Assembly (NCBI GenBank): GCA_003222115.1 | Contig: QHUL01000052.1 | Span: forward strand, 3,726-67,725 | Direction: 5' to 3' | DNA from: Gemmatimonadota bacterium | GTDB lineage: Bacteria > Gemmatimonadota > Gemmatimonadetes > Gemmatimonadales > GWC2-71-9 | DNA: 64,000 bases | Shown here: positions 35,492 through 53,820 of the stretch, in pieces | Numbering within the stretch: the first letter of the stretch is position 1 | How the letters are laid out: the number at the start of each line of letters is the position of its first letter | Program-made: the position numbers and the translations under genes | The notes under the pieces: generated by a model | Told to the model about the DNA's origin: nothing | Seen by the model: only the letters and a program-made list of their open reading frames with translations | Database searches by the model: none

Positions 35492-35506
35492 GCCTCATAT
35501 TGTGTA

Positions 35507-35538
35507 CGTTGACCCGAGCCGCGGTCAACGTCTAACTT
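35507..35538 (+). promoter_or_regulatory. 8-bp inverted repeat CGTTGACC-N8-GGTCAACG overlapping promoter-like TTGACC-N18-TAACTT, in the ggt/murQ divergent region
   Basis: Read directly from the sequence, in the 68-bp gap between ggt (minus strand) and murQ (plus strand). Confidence 0.3.
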
Positions 35539-35559
35539 GGGGGCCACCCGACATCCTTC

Positions 35560-36501: not shown

Positions 36502-37628
36502 CGAGCTGCCTCGCCGTGGGGCTGATGTCGGGCACCTCGCTCGACGGCGTCTCGACGGCACTGGTGCGGCTCTCGGACGACCCCCTCGCTGCGCAGCTCG
36601 TCGCGTTCCGCCAGGAGCCGTACACGGCAGCGGAGCGCGGGGCCGTCATCGACGCCATCGCGCGCGGGCGCGCTCACGATCTCTCGATGCTGCATGTCGC
36701 GCTGGGGGAGCGCTTCGCCGGCGCCGTGCTCCAGCTGCTCGCCGGCGCCAGGGTCGCGCCGCGCGATCTTGCCTTCATTGCGTCGCACGGCCAGACGATC
36801 TGGCACGAGCCGGGCCGAGCCACGCTGCAGCTGGGCGACCCGGCAGTGATCGCCGAACGCGTCGGTGTGCGCGTCGTGAGCGACTTCCGCTCGCGCGACG
36901 TCGCGGCGGGCGGGCAGGGCGCGCCCCTCGTGCCGCTCGCGGACGTGATGCTGTTCGGGCATCCCGAGCGCGGGCGACTGCTCCTCAATCTCGGCGGGAT
37001 GGCGAACGTCACCTGGGTGCCGAGGCGCGGCGTGATCGCCGGCGCGGTCGCCTTCGACACGGGGCCCGGCGTCGCCGTGATCGACGCCGTGACGCGGCGC
37101 GTCGACCCCGACGCCCCGTACGACCAGGACGGGGAGCGGGCGCGCCGCGGCCACCCCGACCTGAAGGCGCTGCACCAGCTCCTCACCGACCCGTTCTTCG
37201 ATCAGCCGCCACCCAAGAGCACGGGGCGCGAGCGGTTCGGGATCGAGTTCGCGGACCGGCTGATCGCGCTGGTGCACGGCGCCGGCGGCTCGGCGAATGA
37301 CGCCGTCGCGACCGCGACCGCGCTCACCGCGGAAACGGTCGCGCGCGGCATCGAGCGTTGGACCCCTCCTCCCGCCCCGGCCGGGGGGGACGAGTTGGTG
37401 ATCTCGGGCGGGGGTGCCCGCAACCCGGCCCTGGTCGAGCTGCTCGCGGGACGGGTGCGGCCGCGGCCCGTTGTCCCGTTCGCCCAGCTCTTCTTCGACG
37501 GCGAGGCCAAGGAGGCGCTCGCCTTCGCGTTCCTGGGCTTCCTGACGCTCGCGGGGAAGCCCGGCAACCTCCCCGCCGCGACGGGGGCGCGCGGGCCCCG
37601 CGTGCTCGGTTCCGTCACGCCGGCGTGA
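36498..37628 (+). CDS. anmK: Anhydro-N-acetylmuramic acid kinase
   Basis: This is the last 376 aa of track ORF 35820..37628. ATGA overlap with murQ. Contains GLMSGTSLDGVS, ASHGQTIWH and NLGGMANVT. Confidence 0.9.
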   Translation: MTSCLAVGLMSGTSLDGVSTALVRLSDDPLAAQLVAFRQEPYTAAERGAVIDAIARGRAHDLSMLHVALGERFAGAVLQLLAGARVAPRDLAFIASHGQTIWHEPGRATLQLGDPAVIAERVGVRVVSDFRSRDVAAGGQGAPLVPLADVMLFGHPERGRLLLNLGGMANVTWVPRRGVIAGAVAFDTGPGVAVIDAVTRRVDPDAPYDQDGERARRGHPDLKALHQLLTDPFFDQPPPKSTGRERFGIEFADRLIALVHGAGGSANDAVATATALTAETVARGIERWTPPPAPAGGDELVISGGGARNPALVELLAGRVRPRPVVPFAQLFFDGEAKEALAFAFLGFLTLAGKPGNLPAATGARGPRVLGSVTPA

Positions 37629-39064
37629 CGACGTCGCTCGCCCGGCTCGTGTTCCCCGCCTTGCGCTGGCGCGGCGGCAGCTTCGACCACGAGCGCGCCA
37701 AGATCGACGCCGCCCTCGCGGCCGGCGTCGGCGGCTTCATCATCTTCGGCGGCACCCCGGCCAGCGTCGGCGCGCTCACGCGCGCCCTCCGCCAGGGGGC
37801 CGGCCGGCCGCTCCTCATCGGCGCCGACCTGGAGCGCGGCGTTGCCCAGCAGGTGCCGGGCATGACCGAGCTGCCGCCCGCGGCGGCGCTCGGGTTGCTG
37901 GACGACCTCGAGGCGACGCGGACCGCCGGCATCATTACGGCATCCGAGGCGCGCGCGCTCGGCATCAACTGGGCCTTCGGCCCGGTGTGCGACCTCGACC
38001 TCGAGCCCAAGAACCCGATCATCCAGACCCGGTCGTTCGGCACCGAGCCCCTGCGCGTCGGCGAGCACGCGGCGGCCTGGGTCGAAGGGCTGCAGCAGCA
38101 TGGCGTGCTGGGCTGCGCCAAACACTACCCCGGGCACGGCCGGACGCTGCGAGACTCGCACGAAACGCTGCCCCGGGTGACCACGCCCAGGGCGGAGCTA
38201 CTGGCGGTCGACGGCACGCCCTTCGAGTGCGCGCTCCGCGCCGGTGTGGGCAGCGTGATGAGCGCTTTCGTCGCCTATCCCGACTGGGACCCATCGGGCC
38301 GGGCGGCGAGCTTCTCACCCGTCATCCTGGGTCACCTGCGCGGGGCGCTCGGGTTCGAGGGGTTCGTCGTCACGGACGCCCTCATCATGGCGGGTGCGAC
38401 GGCGCGGGAAGCCGAGCCCTCAGCGACGGTGTCGGCGGTCGCCGCCGGATGCGACGCGCTGCTCTACCCGGAGGACTTCCGCGCCGTGGCGGCGGCGCTC
38501 GACCGAGCGGTGGGGACCGCGATTCCGCAGGCCCGCGCCGACGAGGCGCTGGCCCATGGCGAGCAGGCGGCCGTGCAGTGGGGCGGCGGCGCAGACCAGG
38601 GCGAACCCGACCTCGCCGCCCACGGCGCGTTCGCCGACGGACTGGCGGACCGGGCCCTGTTGGTCCACCGCGCGGATCCTCCGTTGCTCCGCGGACCGCT
38701 CGGCGTGCACGTCGTCGACGACGACGTGGGGGGACCGTACACCGTCGGGCCGCGGGACATCTTCCACCAAACGGTTCGTGAGGCGGGAGTGGCGGTGCGG
38801 ACGGGCCAGGGGGAAACGGGAAGGGGGACGGGTGTGGTGCTCGTCTACGCCGAGCCGCGGTCGTGGAAGGGACGGGCGGATCTGGGCGCCCGCTCGCGCA
38901 GCGCGCTGCGTCGGCTCGTGCCGGGGGCGGCGCTGGTCGTGCTGTTCGCGCACCCGCGGTTGGTGTCCCAGATCCCGGGCGAGGGACCCGTGCTGTGTGC
39001 CTGGCACGGGCAGCCGCTGATGCAGCGGGCGGCGGCGAGATGGATCCTCGGGAGAATCCGGTAA
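37625..39064 (+). CDS. nagZ: Glycoside hydrolase family 3 beta-N-acetylhexosaminidase (NagZ-like)
   Basis: This is the last 479 aa of track ORF 37358..39064. GTGA overlap with anmK. Contains GPVCDLD, NPIIQTRSFG and KHYPGHGRTLRDSH. Confidence 0.8.
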   Translation: MTTSLARLVFPALRWRGGSFDHERAKIDAALAAGVGGFIIFGGTPASVGALTRALRQGAGRPLLIGADLERGVAQQVPGMTELPPAAALGLLDDLEATRTAGIITASEARALGINWAFGPVCDLDLEPKNPIIQTRSFGTEPLRVGEHAAAWVEGLQQHGVLGCAKHYPGHGRTLRDSHETLPRVTTPRAELLAVDGTPFECALRAGVGSVMSAFVAYPDWDPSGRAASFSPVILGHLRGALGFEGFVVTDALIMAGATAREAEPSATVSAVAAGCDALLYPEDFRAVAAALDRAVGTAIPQARADEALAHGEQAAVQWGGGADQGEPDLAAHGAFADGLADRALLVHRADPPLLRGPLGVHVVDDDVGGPYTVGPRDIFHQTVREAGVAVRTGQGETGRGTGVVLVYAEPRSWKGRADLGARSRSALRRLVPGAALVVLFAHPRLVSQIPGEGPVLCAWHGQPLMQRAAARWILGRIR

Positions 39065-39142
39065 CAGGCCCGTAAGAAGCCGGAAAGAGGCTGGGGAAGG
39101 GGGAAGGCACCCTTCGCCGGCCTCTCACGGGCCTGTTACCGG
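39058..39142. repeat. G-rich palindromic intergenic element (copy 1), probable bidirectional terminator
   Basis: The outer stem is a 16-bp perfect pairing of CCGGTAACAGGCCCGT with ACGGGCCTGTTACCGG. The interior is GGAAAGAGGCTGGGGAAGGGGGAAGGCACCCTTC. The stop codons of both convergent genes (TAA 39062-64 and TAA complement 39136-38) lie inside the arms. Confidence 0.7.
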
Positions 39143-40566
39143 CCTTTCTTTAAGTACTCCACGACGAAGGCAGCTGGCACTGCGTAGATTATTTTCCCCT
39201 GCGACTCCCGCTCGCCGCCGTACAGCACCGCCACGACCCGTCCCTCGCGGTCGAAGATGGGACTGCCGGAGGAGCCCGGGGCGCCGTAGCCGTCCACCTG
39301 CACGACGTTCGACAGCACCTTGCTCACGGTCCCCACGGTGAGCGTGGGATCGGCGATGGCGCTCTGCCCCTGGCGCTCCATCGGCAGATCCTCGCCCAAC
39401 GGGTAGCCGATGATCGCCACCGGGTCGCCACGCTGCAGGCCACGCGGGTCGGCGGCGAAGCCGAGAACGCGCGGCGTGCCTCCCCGAATGTCGATGCGCA
39501 CCACGCCGATGTCGGCCTCGGCGGACGCGCCGGCGAAGCGCGCCCGGAACCACTGCTTGCTGCCCGAGAACTTCACCGCGATCTCCTGCGGCTGCCGCGT
39601 TCCGTCGTCGCCGGTGAGCACGTGCTTGTTGGTGACGAGGGTGCCGGCCGAGTCCACGGCGAACGCGGTGCCGCTGAAGAGCTCCGTGTCGGACAGCTTG
39701 ACGATGATCAGCGCCACGGCGTCCTGGTTTCTCCGGGAGATCGTGCGATAGTCGACGGCGGCGGCCCCCGCCAGCCCGCGCTGCCGGGCCTCGGCGGCCT
39801 CGAGCTCCTCGCGCAGCCGCGCCACGGTGCCTGCGTCGCCGCGCGAGCCGGCGGTGCCGAGCGCGCCCTTCAGCCGGGAGACCTCGACCTGCGACTGCCG
39901 CAGCGCGTCGCGCAGGCTCTGCAGCTCGGTCTGGAAGCGCGACAGCAGGCGCTGCGCCTCGCGATTGAGGCTGTCGGCGCGGGCCTGGAGGTTCGCTACG
40001 TCGCGCGCATCGCGCGTCGCCTGCCACTGCGTCCACCCGAGCCAGGCGCCCGCGACGAGGAGCAGCCCGATGAGCAGCTTGGTGGTTTGGCGCAGCTGTC
40101 GCGTCTGGCGCGCCACCTCCTGGGCGATGCGGAGAGCGCTGCTCGCGCGGGCAGGGAGCGGGGGGGCCGGTGAGACAGCCTGGAACGGCGCGCGCCCCGC
40201 CGCCATCCGCTCGGCCGAGGCGCGCGCTGCTTCCGGAATCGCCTCGTCCCCCGAGCCGACGATGTGGAACTCCACCGACGGCCCCGTCGGGCCGAACCCG
40301 ATGATGTCCCCGTCGTTCAGCGGAGCGTCGTCGCCCGTGATCTGCCGGCCGTTGAGAAACGTGCCGTTCTTGCTGCCCAGGTCGCGCACGACGAAGCCCT
40401 CGCCGTGCCGGAGGATCGCCGCGTGCCGCGAGGAGACGTCGAGGTCCCGCTCCGCGTCGAACCGCACATCCGACAGGGGGTGGCGGCCCACGCCGATGTA
40501 GGCCTTGCGGAAGAGCTCCACTGCGCCGGCGCGCGCCCCCGACAGGAACTTGAAGCGGGCGTTCAC
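39136..40566 (-). CDS. FHA domain / TM / coiled-coil / trypsin-like (S1-family) serine protease fusion protein
   Basis: 476 aa. N-terminal FHA (IGVGRHPLSDVRF, SSRHAAI, VRDLGSKNGTFLNG). TM helix LLIGLLLVAGAWLGW. Protease triad context VTNKHVL, ADIGVVRI and GAPGSSGSPIF. GTG start overlaps the PP2C stop as GTGA. Confidence 0.8.
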   Translation of the reverse strand: MNARFKFLSGARAGAVELFRKAYIGVGRHPLSDVRFDAERDLDVSSRHAAILRHGEGFVVRDLGSKNGTFLNGRQITGDDAPLNDGDIIGFGPTGPSVEFHIVGSGDEAIPEAARASAERMAAGRAPFQAVSPAPPLPARASSALRIAQEVARQTRQLRQTTKLLIGLLLVAGAWLGWTQWQATRDARDVANLQARADSLNREAQRLLSRFQTELQSLRDALRQSQVEVSRLKGALGTAGSRGDAGTVARLREELEAAEARQRGLAGAAAVDYRTISRRNQDAVALIIVKLSDTELFSGTAFAVDSAGTLVTNKHVLTGDDGTRQPQEIAVKFSGSKQWFRARFAGASAEADIGVVRIDIRGGTPRVLGFAADPRGLQRGDPVAIIGYPLGEDLPMERQGQSAIADPTLTVGTVSKVLSNVVQVDGYGAPGSSGSPIFDREGRVVAVLYGGERESQGKIIYAVPAAFVVEYLKKGR

Positions 40567-41594
40567 GGACTCCGGGAGACGAGGTAGACGGCTGCGGCGA
40601 CGAGAGCCGCCGCGACGACCGCCGCCGCGACCATGCGCCAGCGCACTTGTCGGTTCGGCACGGGGGGTGGGCTCCCGCGGTACACGGGGACGGGCTCCGT
40701 GCTCGTTTCTGTGTCGATGAGCGGGTACAGCTGGTGTCCCACTTCGTCGTCCCGCCCCGCGGGTCGCAACCCCTCCCCGTCGAACCGCGCGATGATGACG
40801 GTGATGTTGTCGGGGCCACCGCGCTCGTTGGCGAGCGCGATGAGCTTGTCGCAGGCGGCCTGCAGGTCCCGCTCGGCGCTCACGATCTCGGCGATCTCCT
40901 CCTTCTTCACCTGGCCGGAGAGACCGTCGGAGCAGAGGGCGAGCGCGTCGCCGCGCCGGATCTCTTGATGCGTCAAGTCCACCTTCACCTTGGCGTCCGG
41001 TCCGAGCGCCTGGAGGATGATGTTCCGCCGCTCGCTCTGCGCCGCCTCCTCCTCGGTCAGCTCGCCCGCCTCCACGAGACGCTGCATCAGCGACTGGTCC
41101 TTCGTGAGCTGGTAAGCCCGGCCCCCGCGGATCAGGTAGGCCCGGCTATCACCGACCTGCGCGAGGTAGACATGGTCGCCCAGCACCCCTACCGCGGTCG
41201 TGGTCGTGCCCATGCCGCGCACCTCGGGATGCGCCTTGGCGTGCGCGTGGATGCGGCTGTTGGCGACCTCCACGGCCTCCTTGAGGCGATAGGCGAAGCG
41301 TTGCGGAGTGACCTCCCGCTCGCCACCCCAAGCCCGCACGAGCTGGGAGTAGATCGTCTCCGTCGCCATCTCGCTCGCCAGCTCGCCGGCCGCAGCCCCG
41401 CCCATCCCGTCCGCCACGACGAAGACCGTGCCGTGGGGCCCGACCACGTGGTCCCGCACGCTGGGCTGCAGGGACGCCTCCTCGCGCGTGAGGTCCGCGA
41501 CGAGGAAGCAGTCCTCATTATGGTCACGAGTCTTCCCGAGGTCGGTTTTCCCGAAGACCTCGATGCGGACGGGCTTGGGCGCGCGTCGGAACAT
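40563..41594 (-). CDS. PP2C-family Ser/Thr protein phosphatase with a C-terminal membrane anchor
   Basis: 343 aa. Contains GKTRDHNEDCF, VADGMGGAAAGELAS and GGPDNITVI. C-terminal TM helix MVAAAVVAAALVAAAVYLV. Confidence 0.9.
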   Translation of the reverse strand: MFRRAPKPVRIEVFGKTDLGKTRDHNEDCFLVADLTREEASLQPSVRDHVVGPHGTVFVVADGMGGAAAGELASEMATETIYSQLVRAWGGEREVTPQRFAYRLKEAVEVANSRIHAHAKAHPEVRGMGTTTTAVGVLGDHVYLAQVGDSRAYLIRGGRAYQLTKDQSLMQRLVEAGELTEEEAAQSERRNIILQALGPDAKVKVDLTHQEIRRGDALALCSDGLSGQVKKEEIAEIVSAERDLQAACDKLIALANERGGPDNITVIIARFDGEGLRPAGRDDEVGHQLYPLIDTETSTEPVPVYRGSPPPVPNRQVRWRMVAAAVVAAALVAAAVYLVSRSP

Positions 41595-41598
41595 CGGC

Positions 41599-43128
41599 CT
41601 AGGGCTGACTCACAGTCTGCACGATCTGGCGGCACGAGCTCAAGGTGGCATCGAGCGCCAGGCCCTGGTTTGCCCACCTGAGCGCGAGCGTGTTGTCGTG
41701 CTTGCTGCTGTAGGCCTGAGCGACCAGGCACGCCGCGAACGCGCGGTCCTTCTGGCCCACGCCGGCCGCATTGTAGACCAGCTGTGCCGAGTCGAGGATC
41801 ACCGCCGGCGGCCGGTCGATCAGCGCGTCGAGGATGACACCCGCCTTCGTGGGATCGATCGCCGTCCTGTGGGCCCCGATGCGCGCGGCCCCCGTCTCGC
41901 GCCGGGATGGCCCGCTTGCCGTGCGGGCGCCGCCGGTGTCCGCACGCCGGCTCGCCGTATCGGCCCGGACGCTCGGGGCCACCTGGCGCGTCCCCTTGCC
42001 ACCTCCCCCAAACACGGCCACCGCGGCCCCGCCGCCCCCCAATACCACCACCGCCCCGATGACCGCCGGCGTGAGCGAGCGCCGCTTGACCCCCTTGGTC
42101 GCGACCCGGTCCAGCAGCTGGGTCTTCTCGTCGCCGTCGGCGCGCGTGGCCGGGATGGGGGCCCCCGCGCCGGCGCCGCGCCCGAGCCCGAGGACCGCCC
42201 CGGCGTCCGCCGCGAACTTCGCCGCCGACTGGTAGCGGTCCACCGGGCTGCGCGCCAGCGCCGCGTCGAGCGTCTCCTGCAGGCCGGTGGGGAATTGCAG
42301 ATCGGGCCGCGCCGCGGCGAGTTTCACGGGCTCGTCCGTGAGCCGTTTGATCATCGTCTCCTGGACCGTGGTCGCCTCGAAGGGCAGCTTGCCGGTGAGC
42401 GTCTTGAACAGCACGAGCGCCAGCGAATAGAGGTCGCTGCGGCCGTCCAGCTTGTCGCCCGACAGCTGCTCGGGGCTCATGAACTCCGGGGTCCCGACGA
42501 CGAGCCCCGTTTTCGTGACCTTCTGACTGTCGTCCCCCCCCACGGCCTTGGCGATTCCGAAGTCCACGACCTTCACCACGTCCGACCCTTCTCGGCCGCG
42601 GCTGATCATGATGTTGTCGGGCTTCAGGTCACGGTGCACGATGCCGAGGTCGTGCGCGGCCTGCAGGGCGTCGGCCACCTGGAGAAAGATGTGCCCCGCC
42701 CGGTGCGCCGGGAGCGCCCCCTCGCGCGCGAGCACATCGGTGAGCGGCTCGCCCTCGATGAACTCCATCGCGAGGTAGATCGTCCCGTCGGGCGTTTCGC
42801 CGAAGTCGTAGATCGCGCACACGTTGGGGTGGGTGATGCGGCTCGCGTTCGCGGCCTCGCGGTTGAAGCGCGCCACGGCGTCGGGGTCGTGCACCATGGA
42901 CGGGTTCATGACCTTGATGGCGCTGCGCCGCCCCATCTTCACGTGCTCGGCGAGATACACCTGTCCCATCCCGCCTTCCCCCAGCTTCTTGAGCACGTGG
43001 TAGCGGTCCGCCACCACCTGGCCGACGAGGTCGGCGGTCGGCGCCGCCGCCCGCAGCGTCTGCCCGTCGTTGGCGCAGAACTTGACGTCGTCGGGATACT
43101 CGGTGGAGCAGACGGGGCAGATCTTCAC
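41599..43128 (-). CDS. Hanks-type Ser/Thr protein kinase with an N-terminal zinc-ribbon-like motif, one TM helix and an extracytoplasmic C-domain
   Basis: This is the C-terminal 509 aa of track ORF 41599..43890. GTG at 43128 overlaps the upstream stop. Contains VKICPVCSTEYPDDVKFCANDG, then GEGGMGQVY, AIKVM, HRDLKPDNIM, DFGIAK and GTPEFMSPE. Confidence 0.9.
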   Translation of the reverse strand: MKICPVCSTEYPDDVKFCANDGQTLRAAAPTADLVGQVVADRYHVLKKLGEGGMGQVYLAEHVKMGRRSAIKVMNPSMVHDPDAVARFNREAANASRITHPNVCAIYDFGETPDGTIYLAMEFIEGEPLTDVLAREGALPAHRAGHIFLQVADALQAAHDLGIVHRDLKPDNIMISRGREGSDVVKVVDFGIAKAVGGDDSQKVTKTGLVVGTPEFMSPEQLSGDKLDGRSDLYSLALVLFKTLTGKLPFEATTVQETMIKRLTDEPVKLAAARPDLQFPTGLQETLDAALARSPVDRYQSAAKFAADAGAVLGLGRGAGAGAPIPATRADGDEKTQLLDRVATKGVKRRSLTPAVIGAVVVLGGGGAAVAVFGGGGKGTRQVAPSVRADTASRRADTGGARTASGPSRRETGAARIGAHRTAIDPTKAGVILDALIDRPPAVILDSAQLVYNAAGVGQKDRAFAACLVAQAYSSKHDNTLALRWANQGLALDATLSSCRQIVQTVSQP

Positions 43129-44171
43129 GCGGGAATCTCGATGCGCAGCAGTTTGTCGCCCACCAGGATGCGCGAGTTGTGCTGCAGCGAGATGTCGCCG
43201 CGGGCGGCGAGGGCGATGCCGTTGCGGCTGCCGGCGTCCACGACGACGAAATCCGCGTCCTCGGAGCGGACCAGCGCGTGCTCCGCGCTCATCGAGGGAT
43301 CGTACGGAAAGACCCACTCGCCGCGCTCCCGGCCGACGCGGATGTCGCGCCCCGGTGACAGCTGCACGACGTCCCGGACGCTGCCGTCGGAGCGCAGCTG
43401 CGTCAGGCTCGCGATGTCGGCGCTGGGCGTCAGGCTTCCCATGCGGCGCGTGGCGTCGGCGTCGGGCGCGTGCGGGCCGGGGTATCCGAGCCGGCGGAAG
43501 CGGATCACCTGTGCGCCGATCAGCAGCAGGTCCCCGTCGGCGAGCCGATGCGGCGCCTCGACAAACACCCACGTGCCGTTGCGGCTGCCCAGGTCGCGCA
43601 CCACCAGGTGGTCCTGCTCCCACGAGAGCTTCGCGTGCAGCGGCGACATGAAGGGGTCGTCGGGGAAGCGGATGTCGCCGTCCTGCCGGCCGATCGTGGT
43701 GTCGAGGGTCTTGCGGTCGAAGCGCTGCACCACGTTTCCCACTTCGTCGAGGAGCACCAACGTGATGGCGAGGTTCGTGCGCGTGGTCGGCGGGGCGGAG
43801 GCGCGGAAGGGGAGGAATTGCGCCAGCGGCGCGCCGCACACGGCGCAGAAGCGCGTGCCCGCGGCGACGGGAGAGGCGCAGCGCCCGCACGCCGGCCCCG
43901 AGCCCGGAGCCGTCAGCCGGCGCCCGCAGTGCGGGCAGAACGGCAGTGCGGCGCTGACCTTGGCGTTGCAGAATGGGCAGGCGGCTTCGCCCTTCAGGGG
44001 GGCCGTGGCAGGCGTCGCCACCTCACGTGTGCCGGGGACCGCCGACGCGCGCGCCGGCGGCGCCACTGCGGCCGCCGCTTTCGCGCCGCCGGACTTGTCC
44101 AGGGATTTGCCGCAGTCCATGCAGAACTGCGCGCCGGCCTCGTTGTCGCGGCCGCAATAGGCGCAGGTCAC
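43125..44171 (-). CDS. Triple zinc-ribbon, double FHA-domain protein
   Basis: 348 aa with a GTG start. Three CxxC-N10-12-CxxC ribbons (CAYCG..CMDCG, CPFCN..CPHCG, CGRCA..CAVCG). Two FHA cores (TIGRQ..SPLHAKL..VRDLGSRNGT and VGRER..SAEHALV..VVDAGSRNG). Confidence 0.8.
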   Translation of the reverse strand: MTCAYCGRDNEAGAQFCMDCGKSLDKSGGAKAAAAVAPPARASAVPGTREVATPATAPLKGEAACPFCNAKVSAALPFCPHCGRRLTAPGSGPACGRCASPVAAGTRFCAVCGAPLAQFLPFRASAPPTTRTNLAITLVLLDEVGNVVQRFDRKTLDTTIGRQDGDIRFPDDPFMSPLHAKLSWEQDHLVVRDLGSRNGTWVFVEAPHRLADGDLLLIGAQVIRFRRLGYPGPHAPDADATRRMGSLTPSADIASLTQLRSDGSVRDVVQLSPGRDIRVGRERGEWVFPYDPSMSAEHALVRSEDADFVVVDAGSRNGIALAARGDISLQHNSRILVGDKLLRIEIPA

Positions 44172-44198
44172 TCGGTTCGATACTCCAGGGAGCCCACA

Positions 44199-44226
44199 AG
44201 TTTAGGCTTGCCAATCTATTCCGCAA
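44199..44226 (-). promoter_or_regulatory. Promoter-like TTGCGG-N16-TAAACT (minus strand) for the FHA/kinase operon
   Basis: Read from the reverse complement. The -10-like box ends about 27 nt upstream of the GTG at 44171. It sits back-to-back with the plus-strand site at 44228. Confidence 0.35.
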
Positions 44227-44227
44227 A

Positions 44228-44257
44228 TTGGCGGGTCGAAAGGGTCGATGCTAGCTT
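44228..44257 (+). promoter_or_regulatory. Promoter-like TTGGCG-N18-TAGCTT for the outer-membrane protein gene
   Basis: Read directly from the sequence. Same -10 hexamer as at the trpS and purA sites. Confidence 0.35.
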
Positions 44258-44354
44258 CGGCGCCTGTGCCAGCGAACCGCGCAGTGCCGTGATCGTCGTT
44301 GCACAACGCCATGACGCCACGTTCCACGCGGTCCGCCGCACGAGTTCGTGCGAC

Positions 44355-47141
44355 GTGGCGTCGTGGTGTCGGGTGACGCTGCTCGCGCTGTCGCTCCTCG
44401 CCGGCCGGGCCGAAGCCCAGGTCGATCCGTCCGGTCCCTGGCGCACGCTCCATACGGAGCATTTTCGGATCCACTTTCGCCCCGCGTACCGCGCGGTCGC
44501 CGAGCAGGAAGCGCGCGAAGCGGAGCGGGCCTATCGTCTGCTCGCGGCAGAGCTCCGGGCGCCGCGCGGCGTCGTCGACCTCGTGCTGGGCGACGATGTC
44601 GACGTCGCCAACGGGGCCACGACGGTGTTCCCCTCGAGCCGCATCTATGTCATGCTGCCGCCGCCCCTCGGCGACCCCGGGCTGCAGCGGTTCGACAGCT
44701 GGCTCCGCCTGGTCACGGTGCACGAGCTGACGCACGTCTTCCACCTGGACCGGGTGCGCGGCGTGTGGGGGGTGCTGCAGCGGGTGTTCGGGCGCGCGCC
44801 GGGGCTCTTCCCGAACGCGTTCCAGCCGAGCTGGGTCATCGAAGGCCTGGCGACCTACTACGAGTCCAAGTTCACGAACGGCGGGCGCGTGCGGGGCAGC
44901 TTCCATACGCAGCTCCTCGCGGCCGACCGCGCGGGCGACGCGTCCCGCTCCCCGACCAACGCGCTGCTCTTCACCCGCTGGGCGGACGGGCCGGTGCCGT
45001 ACGCCTACGGCAGCCGCTTCTTTCATTATCTGGCCGGTGCGGCGGGGGACTCCGTCGTTCCCCGGTTCGTCGAGGCGACCGCGAGGCAGCTGATCCCGTT
45101 CCGCGTGGGACGCCAGCTGGGACGGGCCGCGCCGGGGCGCGAGCTCCGCGAAGACTGGGCGCGGGCCACTCGGCCCGAGCTGCCGGCCGGTACGCCGGGC
45201 GACGTGCTCGCCCAGGATCTGTGGAGCGAGCCGGCGCCGCAGCTGTCTCCGGACGGCGGCCGAGTAGCGTACCAGCGCGACGACGGCAAGGAAGCGCGGC
45301 AGCTCGTCGTCGTGGACGTGCGGGACTGGCGGGTGCTGCGGCACCACCGCGTCAACGCCGGCGCGAGTTACGACTGGCTGGGCGACACGCTGGTGGTGGC
45401 GCAGCTCGATTGGACGTCGCGCTGGCGCCTGCGCAGCGATCTGTATCGCTGGCTTCCCGATGGCGGGTGGCGGCGGGACACGCGCGGGGCGCGGCTGGTG
45501 CGGCCGCGCGCCGGCGGCGCCCGCCTCGCCGCGATCCGCTTCACGCCCGCGGCGGCTGAGCCCACCCTCCCCGCGCCCACGGAGCCGGGGGCCGTGTGGG
45601 GGGACGTGGCGCCGTCACCCGACGGCCGGTGGGTCGCGGCGACGCGCCACGCGCAGGGTCATTGGGCGCTGGTGCGCTGGCCCGCCGACTCGCCTCAGGC
45701 GGCGACCGTGCTGCTGACCGCCACGGGCGTGATCGTCGATCCCGTCTGGAGCGGGGACGGCGGGCTGCTGTTCGTGGGGGAGCAGACCGGCTTCCCGCAG
45801 GTGTACCGCTGGAGCGATTCGGTCGGGGCGGTGCAGCTCACGCGCGAGCCGCTGGGTGCGCGCGCGCCGGCGCTGCTGCCCGACGGCAGCCTGCTCTACA
45901 CGACGCTGTCCACCCACGGCTGGCGGCTGTCGCGGGGCCGGCCCGCCGCGACGGCGGTCGTGCCCGCGCCGGCCGACGTGCCCGCGCCGTTCGACTCCGC
46001 GCCGCCGGTGACGGCCTTCGAGAGCGGGTACACCGCGTGGCCGTCCCTGCGACCGCGCTTCTGGCTGCCGTATGGCGTCAACGCGGGTCCGGCCGGGCAC
46101 TTCTTCGGCGGGGTGACCGCCGGGAGGGACGCCGTGGGCCGAGACACCTATGCGGCGGAGCTCCTCGTCTCGCCCTCTCCCCTGCGTGCGGGGGGCGCGT
46201 TCGCCGCTCTTACGGCGCGGCTCGGCAATCCGACGCTCGATGCATCCTTCGACTCCGAGTGGTCGCTCGCCGTGTGGCTCCCCGGCGATACCAGCGTCGC
46301 CGAGCGGGATCAGAACGCGGCCCTGGGCGCGACCTTCGTGATGCGCCGCTTCCGCACGGCCGCCAGCCTCCGGGTCGCCGCGGAATACGAGGGCAACCGC
46401 TTCGTGGTGCTGCCACCGGGCACGCCACTCGCGGCCGCGTGCGGCACGTGCCAGGTCCGCGATCTCGTCGGCGGATCGCTGTCGCTCGGCCTGGCGCACT
46501 TCGTGACGGCGCCACTCGCGATCTCACGGCAGGATGGGTTCGCGTGGACCGTCACCTACCGGCGGCGGGAGCAGCAGGGCACCGCCCGCTGGTCCAACGA
46601 GCTGCGCACGCGGCTGGCGCTGTACGCCCGCGTTCCCGGCCCCGGCGGCTTCGCGCACCACGTGCTCGCCGTGCGCCTCGCGGCCGGGGCGACCGGCGGG
46701 CCGCTCGCCGATCTGCTCAAGGTCGGCGGTGTGTCGCAGGGCGTGCTGAGTCTGGGCTTCACCGGGCCGCTCGGCGGCTCGCGCAGCTTCCCGGTGCGCG
46801 GCTACCGCGGGAACGCGCTGCTGGGGCGGCGCGCCGCCACGGCGAGCGTCGAGTACCGCGTCCCGCTCGCCCTCGTCGGCGAGTCGCTCGGACATCTCCC
46901 CTTCGGCGCCGACAAGTTGTGGCTCGCGCTGTTCGGCGACGCGGGCGACGCTTGGAACCCGGGCGTGGCGCCCCGCCTCGGTCGGCTCCGCTCGGCCGGA
47001 GTCGAGCTCGTCGCTGACCTGACCGTCAGCTACGACGTTCCGCTGGAGGTCCGGCTCGGCGTCGCGCAACCCCTCGCGACGCCTCCGTCCGGTGACGCGC
47101 GCCGTCCGCGCGTCTATCTCGCCCTCGCCGCGGACTTCTGA
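44355..47141 (+). CDS. Large outer-membrane protein: HExxH metalloprotease-like N-domain, TolB/PD40-like beta-propeller and C-terminal beta-barrel
   Basis: This is the in-frame tail of track ORF 43470..47141. Signal-like VASWCRVTLLALSLLAGRAEA-Q, with an alternative GTG at 44289. Contains HELTHVFH. PD40-like repeats SPDGGRVAYQRDD and SPDGRWVAATRH. Alternating-hydrophobic C-terminus ends in YLALAADF, with a terminal Phe. Confidence 0.65.
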   Translation: MASWCRVTLLALSLLAGRAEAQVDPSGPWRTLHTEHFRIHFRPAYRAVAEQEAREAERAYRLLAAELRAPRGVVDLVLGDDVDVANGATTVFPSSRIYVMLPPPLGDPGLQRFDSWLRLVTVHELTHVFHLDRVRGVWGVLQRVFGRAPGLFPNAFQPSWVIEGLATYYESKFTNGGRVRGSFHTQLLAADRAGDASRSPTNALLFTRWADGPVPYAYGSRFFHYLAGAAGDSVVPRFVEATARQLIPFRVGRQLGRAAPGRELREDWARATRPELPAGTPGDVLAQDLWSEPAPQLSPDGGRVAYQRDDGKEARQLVVVDVRDWRVLRHHRVNAGASYDWLGDTLVVAQLDWTSRWRLRSDLYRWLPDGGWRRDTRGARLVRPRAGGARLAAIRFTPAAAEPTLPAPTEPGAVWGDVAPSPDGRWVAATRHAQGHWALVRWPADSPQAATVLLTATGVIVDPVWSGDGGLLFVGEQTGFPQVYRWSDSVGAVQLTREPLGARAPALLPDGSLLYTTLSTHGWRLSRGRPAATAVVPAPADVPAPFDSAPPVTAFESGYTAWPSLRPRFWLPYGVNAGPAGHFFGGVTAGRDAVGRDTYAAELLVSPSPLRAGGAFAALTARLGNPTLDASFDSEWSLAVWLPGDTSVAERDQNAALGATFVMRRFRTAASLRVAAEYEGNRFVVLPPGTPLAAACGTCQVRDLVGGSLSLGLAHFVTAPLAISRQDGFAWTVTYRRREQQGTARWSNELRTRLALYARVPGPGGFAHHVLAVRLAAGATGGPLADLLKVGGVSQGVLSLGFTGPLGGSRSFPVRGYRGNALLGRRAATASVEYRVPLALVGESLGHLPFGADKLWLALFGDAGDAWNPGVAPRLGRLRSAGVELVADLTVSYDVPLEVRLGVAQPLATPPSGDARRPRVYLALAADF

Positions 47142-47228: not shown

Positions 47229-49094
47229 ATGTATTGCTCTCGCTGCGGGACCCAGAACGAGAACGCCAGCAAATTCTGCCGCTCCTGCGGCTTGGACCTG
47301 ACCGCCACGACACCCGTCGGCGCGGTGAAGGACCCGCAGCAGGAGATGACGGACCTTGAGCTGGTTCGGGAGCAGCTCAAGGAGGAGTACGAGATCCTAG
47401 AGGAGTTGGGCCGGGGGGGGATGGCGATCGTCTTCAGGGCCCGCGAGCGCCAACTCGAGCGCGACGTCGCGATCAAAGTCCTGCCGTTTTCTCTCTCCTT
47501 CGATAAAGAATTCGTCGAGCGCTTCCAGCGGGAAGCGCGCACCTCCGCCAAGCTGGAGCACCCGAACATCATCCCGATCTATCGCGTCGGAAAATCGGGC
47601 CGGGTGATCTTCTTCGTCATGAAGTTCCTGCGCGGCAAGCCGCTGTCATCGGTGCTCGCCGCGCGGGGCACGCTGGCGCCGGCGGAGATCCGGCAGGTCC
47701 TGGCCCAGGTCGCGCGCGCCCTCGCCTACGCGCACCGCAGCGGCATCGTCCACCGCGATATCAAGCCCGACAACATCATGTTCGATGAACACGGCCTCGC
47801 CATGGTCACGGACTTCGGCATCGCCAAGGCCGCCACCGGCGGCAAGCTCACGGGCACCGGCATGTCCATCGGCACGCCGCACTACATGAGCCCCGAGCAG
47901 GCCCGGGCCCAGCCGCTCGACGGCCGCAGCGATCTCTACTCCCTGGGCGTGGTGGCGTACCAGTGCCTCGCGGGCAGCGTTCCCTTCGACGGCGAGGACT
48001 CGTTCGCGATCGGCTACAAGCACATCATGGAGGAGCTGCCGACCCCGTCGCTCGAGACGCCCGACAAGCGCAGCCTCTTCGACATCATCCGCAAGATGAT
48101 GGCCAAGCTCCCGGACGACCGCTTCCAGGACGCCGACGACCTGGTCCAGGCGCTGGAGGGCGGGGCGTTCGCCCCCTTGGCGCTCGCGACGGCGCCCACG
48201 CGGGCCATTCCCTCCCTCGGGAAGCTCACGGCGGCGCCCACCCCGCTGCCCAAGGCTGGGCGGCCGGTGGCTCCCGGCGAACACCACCGCTCCGTGGCGG
48301 CCGCGGTGTCGATCTGGCTCTTCATTGTCCTGTCGCTCGCCGGGGGCGGGGGCTTCTACGCGTACAAAAAGGGGTGGCTCCTCGCCACGCCCGGGCCCGC
48401 CACGGGCGCGCGGGACTCGACGGCGCGCGACACCAGCGCCGCCGCCGACAGCGCAGGCCGGGCCGACACGAGCGGCGCGCTCGCCAGCGCCACCGGTGGC
48501 GGGACGGGGCACGACACGTCCCGCTCCCATCAGCCGCCACCCTCTCCGGGCACCCCCGCGCGCCTGACGCTCCAGGGCGTACCGCAGGGCGCGCGCGTCA
48601 CGCTGAACGGCCAGCCGGTGCGAGGGCCCCAGGTCGACGTCCCGCCCGGGGTCTACAAGCTCGCGGTGCGCGCGGGGGGCTATCAGCCCTACGAGCGGCA
48701 GGTGGTCGTGCCTCCGGGAGCGCCGCTCACCGTGCGGGTCGAGCTCCAGGCGATGGTCGAAGACGCCGAGAGCGGCGGGGGGCCGTGCGACGCCTACGGA
48801 CCGGCCTACAATCAGGACAAGATCTGCTTCGATACCCGGCCCATCCCGCTCCAGCCGGCGCTCGTCCCGGTCCCCGGCGACGCGCCCGTCTTTCCCCGGC
48901 CGGCCATCCTCCTGTTCCACGTGTCGCGCAACGGCGAGACGCAAGAAGTGCGGGTGTTCGTGCGCTCCAACGTGGAGACGTTCAACGATCAGGCACTCGA
49001 CCTCGCGAAGAACCTGCGGTGGAACCCGGCGCTCAAGAACGGCGAGCCCGTGGACGCCTGGGTGCAGTACCCCGTGAACCCCACGAGGCAGTAA
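47229..49094 (+). CDS. Hanks-type Ser/Thr protein kinase: zinc-ribbon, kinase, TM, PEGA and TonB-C-terminal-like domains
   Basis: 621 aa. MYCSRCGTQNENASKFCRSCG, then GRGGMAIVF, AIKVL, HRDIKPDNIM, DFGIAK and GTPHYMSPE. TM helix AAVSIWLFIVLSLAGGGGFYAY. PEGA-like LTLQGVPQGARVTLNGQPV..GVYKLAVRAGGYQPYE. TonB_C-like LLFHVSRNGETQEVRVFVRSNVETFNDQALDLAKNLRWNPALKNGEPVDAWVQYPV. Confidence 0.85.
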   Translation: MYCSRCGTQNENASKFCRSCGLDLTATTPVGAVKDPQQEMTDLELVREQLKEEYEILEELGRGGMAIVFRARERQLERDVAIKVLPFSLSFDKEFVERFQREARTSAKLEHPNIIPIYRVGKSGRVIFFVMKFLRGKPLSSVLAARGTLAPAEIRQVLAQVARALAYAHRSGIVHRDIKPDNIMFDEHGLAMVTDFGIAKAATGGKLTGTGMSIGTPHYMSPEQARAQPLDGRSDLYSLGVVAYQCLAGSVPFDGEDSFAIGYKHIMEELPTPSLETPDKRSLFDIIRKMMAKLPDDRFQDADDLVQALEGGAFAPLALATAPTRAIPSLGKLTAAPTPLPKAGRPVAPGEHHRSVAAAVSIWLFIVLSLAGGGGFYAYKKGWLLATPGPATGARDSTARDTSAAADSAGRADTSGALASATGGGTGHDTSRSHQPPPSPGTPARLTLQGVPQGARVTLNGQPVRGPQVDVPPGVYKLAVRAGGYQPYERQVVVPPGAPLTVRVELQAMVEDAESGGGPCDAYGPAYNQDKICFDTRPIPLQPALVPVPGDAPVFPRPAILLFHVSRNGETQEVRVFVRSNVETFNDQALDLAKNLRWNPALKNGEPVDAWVQYPVNPTRQ

Positions 49095-49600
49095 TCAACA
49101 TCCATCCGAGCGCCTTCATCGCCCCGGGCGCCGTCGTGCTTGGGGACGTGACGCTCGGCGCGCGCGTGAGCGTGTGGTACGGGGCCGTGCTGCGCGGCGA
49201 TACGGCGCCGATCAGCGTGGGTGAGGCGAGCAACGTGCAGGACGGCTCGATCATTCACGTGGACGAGGGGCTTCCGGCGACGATCGGCGCCCGGGTGGGC
49301 ATCGGTCACCGCGCCGTGCTGCACGGCTGCACGGTCGAGGACGAGTGCCTGATCGGGATGGGGAGCATCTTGCTGAACGACGTGCGGATCGGGACGGGGA
49401 GCGTGGTGGCGGCGGGGGCCGTCGTGCCGGAGGGGCTGGTGGTCCCCCCCGGCTCGCTCGTGGTCGGCGTCCCCGGTCGCGTGGTGCGGACCGTGGACGC
49501 GACGCTGCAGCAGCGGATCCGCGGCACCTGGGAGCACTACGTCGTGGAGGCCGAGCGGCATCGGGCCGGGAACTTCCCGATCGCGAGAACAGGTTTGTGA
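49019..49600 (+). CDS. Gamma-carbonic-anhydrase-like / left-handed beta-helix (YrdA/PaaY) family protein
   Basis: This is the tail of track ORF 47963..49600. Contains IHPSAFIAPGAVVLGDVTLGARVSVWYGAVLRGD and NVQDGSIIHVD. The start is uncertain. The nearest canonical in-frame start is the GTG at 49019, which overlaps the kinase gene by 76 nt. Confidence 0.75.
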   Translation: MEPGAQERRARGRLGAVPREPHEAVINIHPSAFIAPGAVVLGDVTLGARVSVWYGAVLRGDTAPISVGEASNVQDGSIIHVDEGLPATIGARVGIGHRAVLHGCTVEDECLIGMGSILLNDVRIGTGSVVAAGAVVPEGLVVPPGSLVVGVPGRVVRTVDATLQQRIRGTWEHYVVEAERHRAGNFPIARTGL

Positions 49601-52261: not shown

Positions 52262-52370
52262 GCGGTGGGCCGGTGCTGCGCGCCCGCCGCAGTCGGCCAT
52301 CGAGCGCTGACCATGCCTGCTGTGACTCGAATCACGACACTTTATGGGACTGGACGTTAGCCATTAGAGC

Positions 52371-52754
52371 ATGACGACCGGCCACATCACTCCCACTCGG
52401 ATTCAGGCCAAGGGATGGGCGCGCGTGGGCAGAGCGGGCGCTCACCTGTTGCGCCGCGGCGCCTGGTACCCCGTCGTGCGCATCTCCTCCAGTCACATCG
52501 TCGTGCTCGACGTGAATCGCCGCAACGTTCCCGTCGACCGCCGGTTTCTCGAGATCCGCTATCACCCGCCCGAGCGCTGGAGCATCGTGCGCTGCGAGCC
52601 GCGTGAGATCCAGCGCGTGGGCCGGCCGTTCCCGCTCACCTACGGCGTGTGCCCGAGCTGCCGTCACCGGCAGGCGTTCGACGGGGATGCGAAGGAACTC
52701 ACCTGCGACCGCTGCCACAAGAGCGCGGGGCTGGCGTGGGATGAGTTGAGTTAA
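52371..52754 (+). CDS. Hypothetical zinc-ribbon protein, paralogue A
   Basis: 127 aa. Contains LLRRGAWYPVV, WSIV and CPSCRHRQAFDG..CDRC. About 40% alignable by eye with the ORF at 53458. Confidence 0.55.
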   Translation: MTTGHITPTRIQAKGWARVGRAGAHLLRRGAWYPVVRISSSHIVVLDVNRRNVPVDRRFLEIRYHPPERWSIVRCEPREIQRVGRPFPLTYGVCPSCRHRQAFDGDAKELTCDRCHKSAGLAWDELS

Positions 52755-52756
52755 CG

Positions 52757-52830
52757 GCCGGGAAGAGGCCGGGGAAGAGCGAAGGGGGAAGGGGCCGCAA
52801 CCCTTCCCCCTTCCCATTTCCCCCGGCCTT
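52757..52830. repeat. G-rich palindromic intergenic element (copy 2), probable bidirectional terminator
   Basis: 13-bp perfect stem of GAAGGGGGAAGGG (52781-93) with CCCTTCCCCCTTC (52801-13). The outer pairing is GGCCGGGGAA with TTCCCCCGGCC. The 5' side has a tandem GGCCGGG(G)AAGAG duplication. It shares the CCGG(A/G)AAGAGGC(T/C)GGGGAAG...GGGGAAGG..CCCTTC core with the element at 39058. Confidence 0.65.
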
Positions 52831-53415
52831 TCAACCTTCCACGAGTACCAAACGGTCGCCCAGGGAAACGATTCCCGAACCCTCACCGCGGCAGTAGAAC
52901 CCCCGCGTCCCTCCGTCCAGGAACTGGAGGTGGGACTTGAGGACCTCGCTCTCCACCCGGTTCCCCAGGGCCCAGCCGGTGAACGGCCTGCAGGGGTGAG
53001 CGACGTCGAGCACGTTGAAGCGCGCGACCTCCGACCCGCCCGCGCCGACGCATACCAGGCCTGCCGCGAGGTCCTCCAGCGTGAACCGTCGGCTCGTCTC
53101 CACGATGATGTTCTCCCCCGCGCACCCGAGGGTGATGCGGTCGCTGAAGCGCTGCCGCATCGCGTCGTAGTGGGACGTGAACCCGACCGAGACGCCGTGC
53201 ATCCCGTCCGGGTTCTTGGTTTGCGGGTGCGCGCGATGGTGCACGTCCACGATCCACGACCGGTTCTCGCCCTCGCCCAGCACGCCGTCTCCACCCACGG
53301 CCAGGCGCCGCACCGCGAGGACGGGCGAGGGGTCGTACACGCGGTGGGGCTTCTCGCCCGTCTTCAAGGACGAGCGTTGGATCTGCAGACGGACGACGGC
53401 GCCGATCTCGCGCAT
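52831..53415 (-). CDS. MOSC-domain-containing protein
   Basis: 194 aa. ITLGCAGENIIVE, ARFNVLDVAHPCRPF is MOSC-like (GEN..., conserved PC). Confidence 0.65.
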   Translation of the reverse strand: MREIGAVVRLQIQRSSLKTGEKPHRVYDPSPVLAVRRLAVGGDGVLGEGENRSWIVDVHHRAHPQTKNPDGMHGVSVGFTSHYDAMRQRFSDRITLGCAGENIIVETSRRFTLEDLAAGLVCVGAGGSEVARFNVLDVAHPCRPFTGWALGNRVESEVLKSHLQFLDGGTRGFYCRGEGSGIVSLGDRLVLVEG

Positions 53416-53457
53416 AACGAAACCTAACGAAAAGTGATATCATGGTGGCTCTGACCC

Positions 53458-53820
53458 ATGGGCAAGCTCGGTTGGGCGCGGTGCCTCGACAACGTGGCGG
53501 ACATTCTCCGCCGGGGCGCGTGGTATGCGGTCGTGGAGGAGACGGGCGACGGCCACCTCGTCGTGTCGGTGCGCGATCAGCGGGTCCGGCTCAGCCGGCA
53601 CGACGTGCGCATGCGCCCCGACGCCCCCACGGACTGGAGCATCGTGGTCCGCACCGGCGTCCTCCGGCCGACCCTGGGAGGGAAGGGGATGGAGGTGGTG
53701 ACGACGTACGCCGTCTGCCCCCACTGCCACGAGCGCCAGGACTTCAGCGGCAAGCCCGACACGATGATCTGCCGGCGCTGCGGCCGCACGTCGTCGGTGG
53801 ACTGGTCGGAGACCTGTTGA
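53458..53820 (+). CDS. Hypothetical zinc-ribbon protein, paralogue B
   Basis: 120 aa. Contains ILRRGAWYAVV, WSIVV and CPHCHERQDFSG..CRRC. Paralogous to the ORF at 52371. Confidence 0.55.
   Translation: MGKLGWARCLDNVADILRRGAWYAVVEETGDGHLVVSVRDQRVRLSRHDVRMRPDAPTDWSIVVRTGVLRPTLGGKGMEVVTTYAVCPHCHERQDFSGKPDTMICRRCGRTSSVDWSETC

Follow-up and report, generated by a model that had tools for sequence, protein, structure and literature searches.

Receptor-type Ser/Thr kinases of bacteria are understood mainly through the PASTA kinases of monoderm species, and knowledge of the envelope input to Hanks kinases in diderm bacteria is confined to a handful of examples, with PpkA of type VI secretion foremost. 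In Serratia, the periplasmic domain of PpkA binds the activator RtkS and the kinase signals to an FHA protein (PMC6082577). In the Agl-Glt gliding machinery of Myxococcus xanthus, GltG and GltJ consist of an FHA or Zn-ribbon domain, one transmembrane (TM) helix, a disordered periplasmic segment and a domain like the TonB C-terminal domain (CTD), and an AlphaFold model shows the TonB-CTDs docked on GltD, a protein of the periplasm (PMC11761067). A variety of sensor domains is already known from Hanks kinases, and TonB_C domains on signalling proteins other than TonB have their precedent in GltG/GltJ; the combination of a Hanks kinase with a TonB/TolA-type domain is unstudied, and no description of a kinase and TonB_C or a kinase and PEGA fusion was found in a literature search. 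Such a combination is encoded in a stretch of 64,000 nucleotides (the window) of a Gemmatimonadota bacterium of the order Gemmatimonadales (assembly GCA_003222115.1, contig QHUL01000052.1, positions 3,726 to 67,725). The protein, termed here Kin1, is a bitopic Hanks Ser/Thr kinase with a Zn-ribbon, a kinase domain, a TM helix, a linker, a PEGA domain, a Cys-containing neck and a TonB_C-like domain. It is an evenly balanced proposition that Kin1 serves as the envelope-facing receptor kinase of a Gemmatimonadales signalling island of Hanks kinases, FHA proteins and a PP2C phosphatase, with the TonB_C-like domain as a passive docking or sensing module.

Kin1 and its periplasmic module

Kin1 is encoded by an intact open reading frame (ORF) of 621 amino acids (aa) at positions 47229-49094 of the plus strand. 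The window has a GC content of ~71%, so that ORF lists are full of spurious frames; genes were mapped by third-position GC, which backs the frame of Kin1 (GC3 0.91), and the start MYCSRCG is kept among the homologs. Four Pfam matches, all exceeding their gathering scores, structure the protein. An N-terminal zinc ribbon (47229-47291; C3-x2-C6 ... C17-x2-C20) is matched by Zn_Ribbon_1 at aa 2-21 with 25.4 bits against a cut-off of 25 and is followed by the protein kinase domain (47388-48128; PF00069, aa 54-300, 174.3 bits against 31.7), in which the catalytic motifs GRGGMAIV (61, G-loop), VAIK (80), HRDIKPDN (175), DFG (195) and SPE (221) are complete, as in a kinase that is apparently active. 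Hydropathy locates a single hydrophobic helix at aa ~355-378 (48291-48362). Kin1 is thus a single-pass inner-membrane protein with the Zn-ribbon and the kinase in the cytoplasm and ~240 residues in the periplasm. This periplasmic region begins with an A/G/T/S/P-rich, weakly conserved linker (48369-48557, aa 381-443), a segment preceding both structural models described below and presumably disordered, and continues with the PEGA domain (48564-48749; PF08308, aa 446-507, 26.8 bits against 20.8). A neck of the pattern GPCDxxGPAYNQDxxC[FW]D-TRPxPL (48780-48860), recognized by its invariant alignment columns and nearly invariant as a whole, contains C520 and C533, the sole periplasmic cysteines of Kin1, which probably form a disulfide. 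The C-terminal domain (48861-49091, aa ~545-621) is matched by TonB_C (PF03544) at aa 560-617 with 37.1 bits against 24.6 (E 4.6e-9, profile positions 19-76 of 79), while the NCBIfam model TIGR01352 tonB_Cterm is passed marginally with 27.3 against 27.1. The first-pass annotation, which was made from the sequence alone, had read a zinc ribbon, a complete kinase, one TM helix, a Ser/Thr/Gly/Ala-rich linker, PEGA and TonB_C in this protein; every element proved right by Pfam, motifs, hydropathy and composition, and the periplasmic placement of the latter two domains behind the single TM helix is supported.

The fold of the two terminal domains was addressed by AlphaFold2 (AF2) models. Residues 440-621, modelled with 32 homologs, gave a pLDDT of 82.6 and display a beta-sandwich of six strands, a stretch modelled with low confidence and a compact alpha/beta domain; residues 518-621 on their own reached a pLDDT of 89.7 and a pTM of 0.78. 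When the latter model was compared with the PDB by Foldseek, the best 19 matches were all to TonB CTD, HasB, FusB or TolA-III, including TonB in complex with FoxA, TbpA, BtuB and FhuA. The predicted TonB/TolA-type fold of the Kin1 C-terminus thus holds in the hidden Markov model (HMM) and the structure search. A search of the PDB by sequence profile, made with the complete periplasmic region, gave no TonB match, returning noise and one PEGA-like stretch in a TonB-dependent transporter (TBDT). As the TonB_C match begins only at profile position 19 and the AF2 prediction has one helix only, the first TonB helix seems to be missing or shortened. Equally, the PEGA half, a transthyretin-like beta-sandwich by its predicted strands, finds Foldseek matches among transthyretin-like/carboxypeptidase-regulatory folds. 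A further Foldseek match of the two-domain model was to 9k1u (chains B and D), a structure of the RtkS-PpkA complex, with TM-scores of 0.68-0.70. This structure and 6hif_Y were considered as relatives of the TonB_C part and rejected, since a search with this part alone showed that both matches belong to the PEGA half; the 9k1u match disappears in it.

Whether Kin1 draws on the energy of a proton-driven motor, as TonB does with ExbBD, can be judged from several features. A histidine in the TM helix is found in 0/42 Kin1 orthologs, as is the SxxxH motif (0/42), and the TM helix comes after a 350-aa cytoplasmic kinase, not after a short N-terminus. The linker is A/G/T/S-rich with 7 Pro in 63 residues, which is no Pro-rich spacer. 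ExbB, ExbD, TolQ and TolR are found neither among the ~46 window genes scanned, with a few small ORFs outside the scan, nor in related loci; small genes of 220, 139, 127 and 132 aa at the 5' end of the window, considered as ExbB/ExbD candidates, are the ribosomal proteins S3, L16, L14 and L24. Equally, the window genes scanned contain no TBDT and no second TonB_C copy. The absence of SxxxH, the position of the TM helix, the missing Pro-rich spacer and the lack of ExbBD genes among those scanned together lead to the view of a passive docking or sensing module. That Kin1 would be a true energised TonB paralog, coupled to ExbBD and powering transport besides its kinase role, is disfavoured and very improbable: the TonB_C HMM and fold matches fit such a role and some automated annotations call relatives 'TonB family protein' or 'energy transducer TonB', but the features just listed speak against it, as do the truncated profile match and the single predicted helix.

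Kin1 is conserved order-wide across soil Gemmatimonadales. It is 100% identical to an NCBI "hypothetical protein" of a soil Gemmatimonadetes metagenome-assembled genome, and at least 120 full-length homologs among the matches listed (69-100% identity, 612-643 aa) all possess Pkinase and TonB_C, with PF03544 precomputed on nearly all of the 120; the domains of Kin1 homologs have thus already been listed by automated annotation. A scan with one genome per species yielded 50 loci, all bearing Gemmatimonad* names save for one "uncultured bacterium" record, and the fusion is kept in 42 full-length orthologs, of which the named ones are only Gemmatimonadota. An exhaustive profile search covered 1.8 billion representatives, with figures resting on the best 150 matches listed: 52 of these proteins contain the Kin1-type TonB_C module, whereas the other 98 are multi-PEGA repeat proteins. 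The full-length module carriers (P0305, P0343, P0385, P0394, P0421) display the same Zn-ribbon, kinase, TM, PEGA and TonB_C layout in local phmmer comparisons, Pfam agrees in all four representatives scanned, and the few named carriers are again Gemmatimonad*. Rare exceptions place PEGA and TonB_C on other N-termini, for example, DUF4440. As the multi-PEGA proteins swamp the exhaustive search, it is silent on kinase and TonB_C fusions in other phyla.

The upstream outer-membrane protein and its cassette

The first-pass annotation had correctly located an outer-membrane (OM) barrel gene and FHA genes next to Kin1, and had suggested that the TonB_C domain senses an event at this particular barrel. 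The gene at 44355-47141 (plus strand) encodes a protein of 928 aa with a signal peptide ending in ...AEA before the mature N-terminal Q, an HExxH...EGLA domain, a propeller resembling TolB and a putative barrel of the Omp85 type; its last residues are ...ALAADF, with Phe at the end. The motif HELTH...WVIEGLA is invariant in the family; the domain has no PDB relative by profile and no Pfam family, with faint DUF1570 matches only, so that a gluzincin-like peptidase would be assigned by the motif alone. PD40 is detected in 18/18 orthologs and TolB is matched in the PDB with E ~1e-4. Over the C-terminal ~370 aa, Omp85 (PF01103) scores 17.6 bits, below the cut-off of 24, and matches 10/18 orthologs at sub-threshold level (best E 1e-3). 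Omp85 proteins are marked by a loop-6 VRGY/F and a beta13 (F/G)xDxG motif; FPVRGY and FGDAGDAW are invariant in the present alignment and coincide with these two motifs when aligned to 9ccg_A, a POTRA-domain protein. The C-terminus is accepted as a putative Omp85-type barrel on the weak HMM match, these motifs, the signal peptide and the C-terminal Phe. The earlier designation as an OM barrel is thus backed by motifs and termini, while the HMM score stays under its threshold.

The N-terminus of the OM protein gives no POTRA match, possessing the HExxH domain and the PD40 propeller instead. Neither TonB_dep_Rec nor Plug matches the protein, and a TonB-box pattern occurs in 0/27 orthologs, as already remarked at first reading, where no TonB box had been recognized. 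By these sequence characters the protein is not a TBDT. The mature N-terminus follows the invariant pattern QxDPSxxWxTLHxxHFRxHF. The OM protein is unusual in that an Omp85-type barrel is joined to a HELTH...EGLA domain and a TolB-like propeller in place of POTRA; homologs were found only in Gemmatimonadota, with precomputed Pfam annotation empty for the homologs of the C-terminal barrel.

In the window, the OM protein and Kin1 genes lie on the same strand and 87 nt apart. In related loci, the region between the divergent FHA gene and Kin1 is occupied by a variable same-strand cassette of up to three genes: an Amidase_3 peptidoglycan amidase with a ~400-aa N-terminus of no known family, found in most loci, the OM protein, and a protein of ~780 aa, here called Y, in which a GWxTD domain is recognized with 32.3 bits against 28 and TPR is matched weakly. 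Examples of amidase and Y are found in L002 (1700-3379 and 6240-8597), L003 (3901-5703) and L047 (4561-7017). Neither Y nor the amidase gene is in the window (for Y, tblastn at 1e-8 was empty). Among ~39 classifiable loci, the cassette consists of amidase, OM protein and Y in 9 loci, amidase and OM protein in ~14, the OM protein alone in 3 (the window, L001 and L031), OM protein and Y in two (L026 and L051), Y alone in 6, amidase and Y in 3, and the amidase alone in 1 locus. The OM protein is thus present in ~29/39 loci and sits immediately 5' of Kin1 in ~21 related loci, while Y intervenes between both in at least 11 loci. Ten loci hold Kin1 without the OM protein, mostly on the deeper branches of the kinase similarity tree with Y adjoining Kin1; therefore, the adjacency of the OM protein and Kin1 in the window would be derived by loss of Y.

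The conservation of the Kin1 domains was compared between loci with and without the OM protein. Mean pairwise identity of the kinase domain is 0.91 among loci with the OM protein, 0.83 among those without and 0.84 between the two groups; the respective values are 0.81, 0.62 and 0.66 for TonB_C, 0.67, 0.54 and 0.52 for PEGA, and 0.51, 0.34 and 0.28 for the linker. TonB_C is the second best conserved region of Kin1, strongly constrained whatever gene lies upstream, and this conservation argues for a functional domain and not a relic. A distant genome (L052, 8001-9434) encodes a barrel-only homolog of 477 aa and 29% identity in the same slot beside a class II ribonucleotide reductase (RNR) without kinase, FHA and PP2C genes, which suggests that the island, or the N-terminal domains of the barrel, have been gained or lost as a unit. 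The linkage between the OM protein and Kin1 is only loose and the OM protein is dispensable in cis. As a separate observation, amidase, Y, TolB-like propeller and TolA/TonB-like domain loosely echo the Tol-Pal/CpoB/amidase theme of OM constriction.

The proposed signalling island and its surroundings

Divergent from the Kin1 side, across the intergenic region 44172-44354, a tight operon on the minus strand comprises four genes. The first (43125-44171; Pfam FHA in two stretches with 76.7 bits, DZR, Zn_Ribbon_1) encodes a 348-aa protein in which three zinc ribbons are combined with two FHA domains. It is followed by Kin2 (41599-43128; Pkinase, 169.5 bits), likewise a Hanks kinase with a Zn-ribbon, which has a TM helix and ends in a small C-terminal domain. 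The GTG start of Kin2 (43128) overlaps the stop of the preceding gene (GTGA), which suggests translational coupling. Kin2 opens with the zinc ribbon VKICPVCS...FCANDG, and its ~120-aa C-terminal domain is without family match. Next come a PP2C Ser/Thr phosphatase of the Stp1/PstP type, which has a TM helix at its C-terminus (40563-41594; NCBIfam NF033484, 244.5 against 230; Pfam PP2C) and a 476-aa protein with FHA (64.5 bits), a TM/coiled-coil region and a trypsin-like, HtrA/MarP-like serine protease (39136-40566; Trypsin_2, 77.5 bits). The latter gene is conserved in related loci, and its product might give the island an output in the form of phospho-dependent proteolysis in the periplasm. 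Searches by tblastn against the 50 loci recovered this operon, together with Kin1, RNR, a small gene, MOSC and MarR, in every locus long enough, and the FHA proteins proposed from the outset as neighbouring decoders are accompanied by the phosphatase and the second kinase in every locus reaching far enough.

Downstream, a hexapeptide-repeat, gamma-carbonic-anhydrase-like gene (49094-49600, plus strand; by frame plot and an NCBIfam gamma-CA match of E 3.7e-40, below cut-off) abuts the Kin1 stop and is probably co-translated with Kin1. The junction reads CAG TAA TC in the window, in L001 (~10531) and in L002 (~10522), with no ATG, GTG or TTG until 49136 in the window. GAGG stands 6 nt before the ATC at 49094, which suggests a non-canonical ATC start, although the start codon is uncertain; the L051 ortholog (14016-14522) has a GTG that shares bases with the kinase stop (GTGA). 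Further on lies the gene of a class II-type RNR. The ~680 nt before this RNR were considered as the site of a riboswitch, for cobalamin or another ligand, but this was rejected, with Rfam empty and the stretch mostly taken up by the hexapeptide-repeat gene. Two small conserved genes on the plus strand, at 52368-52754 (128 aa) and 53455-53820 (121 aa), show only sub-threshold matches to C-terminal zinc ribbons and could be placed in no family; the former is kept downstream of RNR in nearly all loci. Between it and the convergent MOSC gene, a hairpin (52763-52832) with spurious microRNA Rfam matches (30 bits against 88-105) is probably a bidirectional terminator.

Flanking the island, genes for gamma-glutamyltranspeptidase, a SIS/GKRP-type protein, GH3 and, in relatives, AnmK are observed in several genomes (window 33680-39064; L051 1-1831; L052 320-5578). 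The SIS/GKRP-type (MurQ-like), GH3 (NagZ-like), AnmK and accompanying genes are read as peptidoglycan recycling or related functions. The remaining genes of the window are housekeeping: the ribosomal protein operon, SecY, aminoacyl-tRNA synthetases, PurA, PriA and pyruvate kinase.

Proposed mechanism, candidate partners and known systems

In the mechanism proposed here, the TonB_C-like domain would sit at the tip of a flexible tether and serve passively for docking or sensing. Its ligand would belong to the envelope: in the most plausible case a peptide strand exposed on a periplasmic or an OM-anchored protein, bound by beta-strand augmentation in the manner of TonB and TolA-III, or otherwise the cell wall. 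Occupancy might alter kinase clustering and autophosphorylation of the activation loop; the FHA proteins encoded in the divergent operon, among them the one fused to a periplasmic protease, might then read the phospho-signal, with the PP2C phosphatase resetting it. The likely output would be remodelling of the cell envelope or peptidoglycan, as an amidase gene occurs in most relatives and GH3, the SIS/GKRP-type (MurQ-like) protein and AnmK flank the island; the Omp85/TolB-like protein and Y of the cassette add to this envelope theme. Several points weigh against this mechanism. No ligand or partner of the Kin1 periplasmic region emerged; the flow of the signal to the FHA proteins and the membership of the operons are read from gene order only; consensus scans for promoters and terminators found none, which is uninformative at 71% GC; an ExbBD-type motor is possibly encoded elsewhere in the genome; and the Foldseek matches of the TonB_C part are modest, with TM-scores of 0.45-0.59 and E-values of 2e-3 to 0.3, as expected for a domain of only ~75 residues.

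What the module would grip can be narrowed down only in degrees. Peptidoglycan is an unlikely partner, while standing somewhat ahead of the OM protein, which is improbable, and of Y or another scaffold, which is more doubtful still, the remainder of the expectation falling on something encoded elsewhere. If PEGA and TonB_C bound peptidoglycan or muropeptides, Kin1 would be a diderm analogue of the PASTA kinases PknB and StkP, coupling wall status to growth and division. The resemblance of the island to the PknB/PstP/FhaA/FhaB cluster, the amidase of most loci and the flanking recycling-type genes fit such a wall sensor, as does a TonB_C domain conserved while both candidate protein partners vary; furthermore, an association with peptidoglycan has been reported for the TonB CTD of E. 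coli. However, Pfam detects no PASTA, LysM, OmpA_C, SPOR or PG_binding domain in Kin1, the amidase gene is absent from the window, and peptidoglycan binding is not well established for TonB-type domains. Alternatively, Kin1 might dock on Y or another periplasmic scaffold, with the OM protein as a bystander, in the way the TonB-CTDs of GltG and GltJ engage the TPR protein GltD (PMC11761067). Y lies directly 5' of Kin1 in all deeper-branching loci and in at least 23 loci overall, and its GWxTD domain and weak TPR matches recall this precedent, but Y is absent from the window and ~17 related loci, and TonB_C is best conserved (0.81) in exactly that clade.

Specific docking on the upstream OM protein, by which an event at the OM would be converted into Ser/Thr phosphorylation, had been the initial suggestion. 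Most likely, the mature N-terminus or the propeller would then be contacted in the way TolA-III contacts TolB. The short same-strand spacing and the frequent adjacency favour it, and so do N-terminal domains expected to be periplasmic as in Omp85 proteins, the invariant mature N-terminus, the TolB-like propeller and the TolA-III matches of the TonB_C-like domain of Kin1, among them 6s3w, a complex of TolA-III with the TolB N-terminal peptide. On the other hand, the OM protein is no TBDT and has no TonB box, the ten loci without it, mostly deeper branches, keep Kin1 and a conserved TonB_C, Y intervenes in at least 11 loci, a distant genome has the barrel and no kinase, and the TonB_C identity of 0.66 between both groups of loci fits overall protein divergence. 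The specific pairing is not supported by these observations: the linkage in other genomes, which was to decide upon it, is found in ~29/39 loci and missing in ten and thus speaks partly against it, although the TolA-III/TolB precedent keeps an interaction conceivable by analogy. As a whole, the initial interpretation is partly supported, namely in the domain architecture, the periplasmic placement of PEGA and TonB_C, the apparently active kinase and the conserved FHA, PP2C and second-kinase neighbours. In a bolder version, equally improbable, a Hanks kinase would read the exposure of periplasmic docking strands on OM proteins, be it the N-terminus of the neighbouring Omp85/TolB-like protein or, more generally, the TonB boxes of TBDTs loaded with ligand. 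If true, the occupancy or damage state of the OM would be translated directly into FHA-decoded Ser/Thr phosphorylation, a so far undescribed trans-envelope route that requires neither sigma/anti-sigma pairs nor an energised TonB.

Kin1 as an envelope-facing receptor kinase with a passive module is at present a well-defined, testable hypothesis and not a demonstrated device. Its periplasmic end is the module by which TonB and TolA grip OM partners, in an island complete with kinase, FHA proteins and phosphatase beside envelope and peptidoglycan genes. Identification of the partner would reveal a novel kind of input to Hanks kinases and show the TonB_C fold in a new role, and would equally provide a handle on envelope signalling in Gemmatimonadota, an abundant, little-studied soil phylum.

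Among the known systems, FecA-FecR-FecI is similar in concept only, as an OM event is relayed across the periplasm to a cytoplasmic regulator; its components, namely the signalling domain of a TBDT, an anti-sigma factor and an ECF sigma factor, are all missing from the Kin1 locus. The PASTA kinases PknB of Mycobacterium and StkP of Streptococcus, with PstP/PhpP and FhaA/FhaB, share with Kin1 the single-pass receptor Ser/Thr kinase, the extracytoplasmic envelope-binding region and the clustering with PP2C and FHA genes. The best score of the Kin1 kinase domain is indeed to NF033483 PknB_PASTA_kin, with 320 bits over the kinase part only and the family cut-off of 450 not reached; in contrast to the PASTA kinases, Kin1 is without PASTA repeats and possesses a PEGA and TonB_C sensor region, an N-terminal Zn-ribbon and a diderm host. 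The PpkA kinases of type VI secretion systems (PpkA-RtkS in Serratia, PpkA with TagR/TagQST in Pseudomonas) are closer in setting, being diderm Hanks kinases with a small periplasmic domain engaged by a periplasmic or OM-associated protein, FHA readout and PP2C reset. No type VI secretion genes are among the window genes scanned, no TonB_C domain is ascribed to PpkA in the literature examined, and the likeness to 9k1u is limited to the PEGA half of the Kin1 model. GltG and GltJ, on the other hand, lack kinase and PEGA domains and work with the TolQR-like AglRQS motor; Glt homologs were not seen in the window. Lastly, although Kin1 is without SxxxH, Pro-rich spacer and adjacent ExbBD/TolQR and has a 350-aa kinase as its cytoplasmic part, its tail has, by HMM and structure search, the predicted fold of TonB, which engages the TonB box of TBDTs, and of TolA-III, which engages the TolB N-terminus, each of which forms the periplasmic end of a protein that is anchored in the inner membrane and extends toward the OM.

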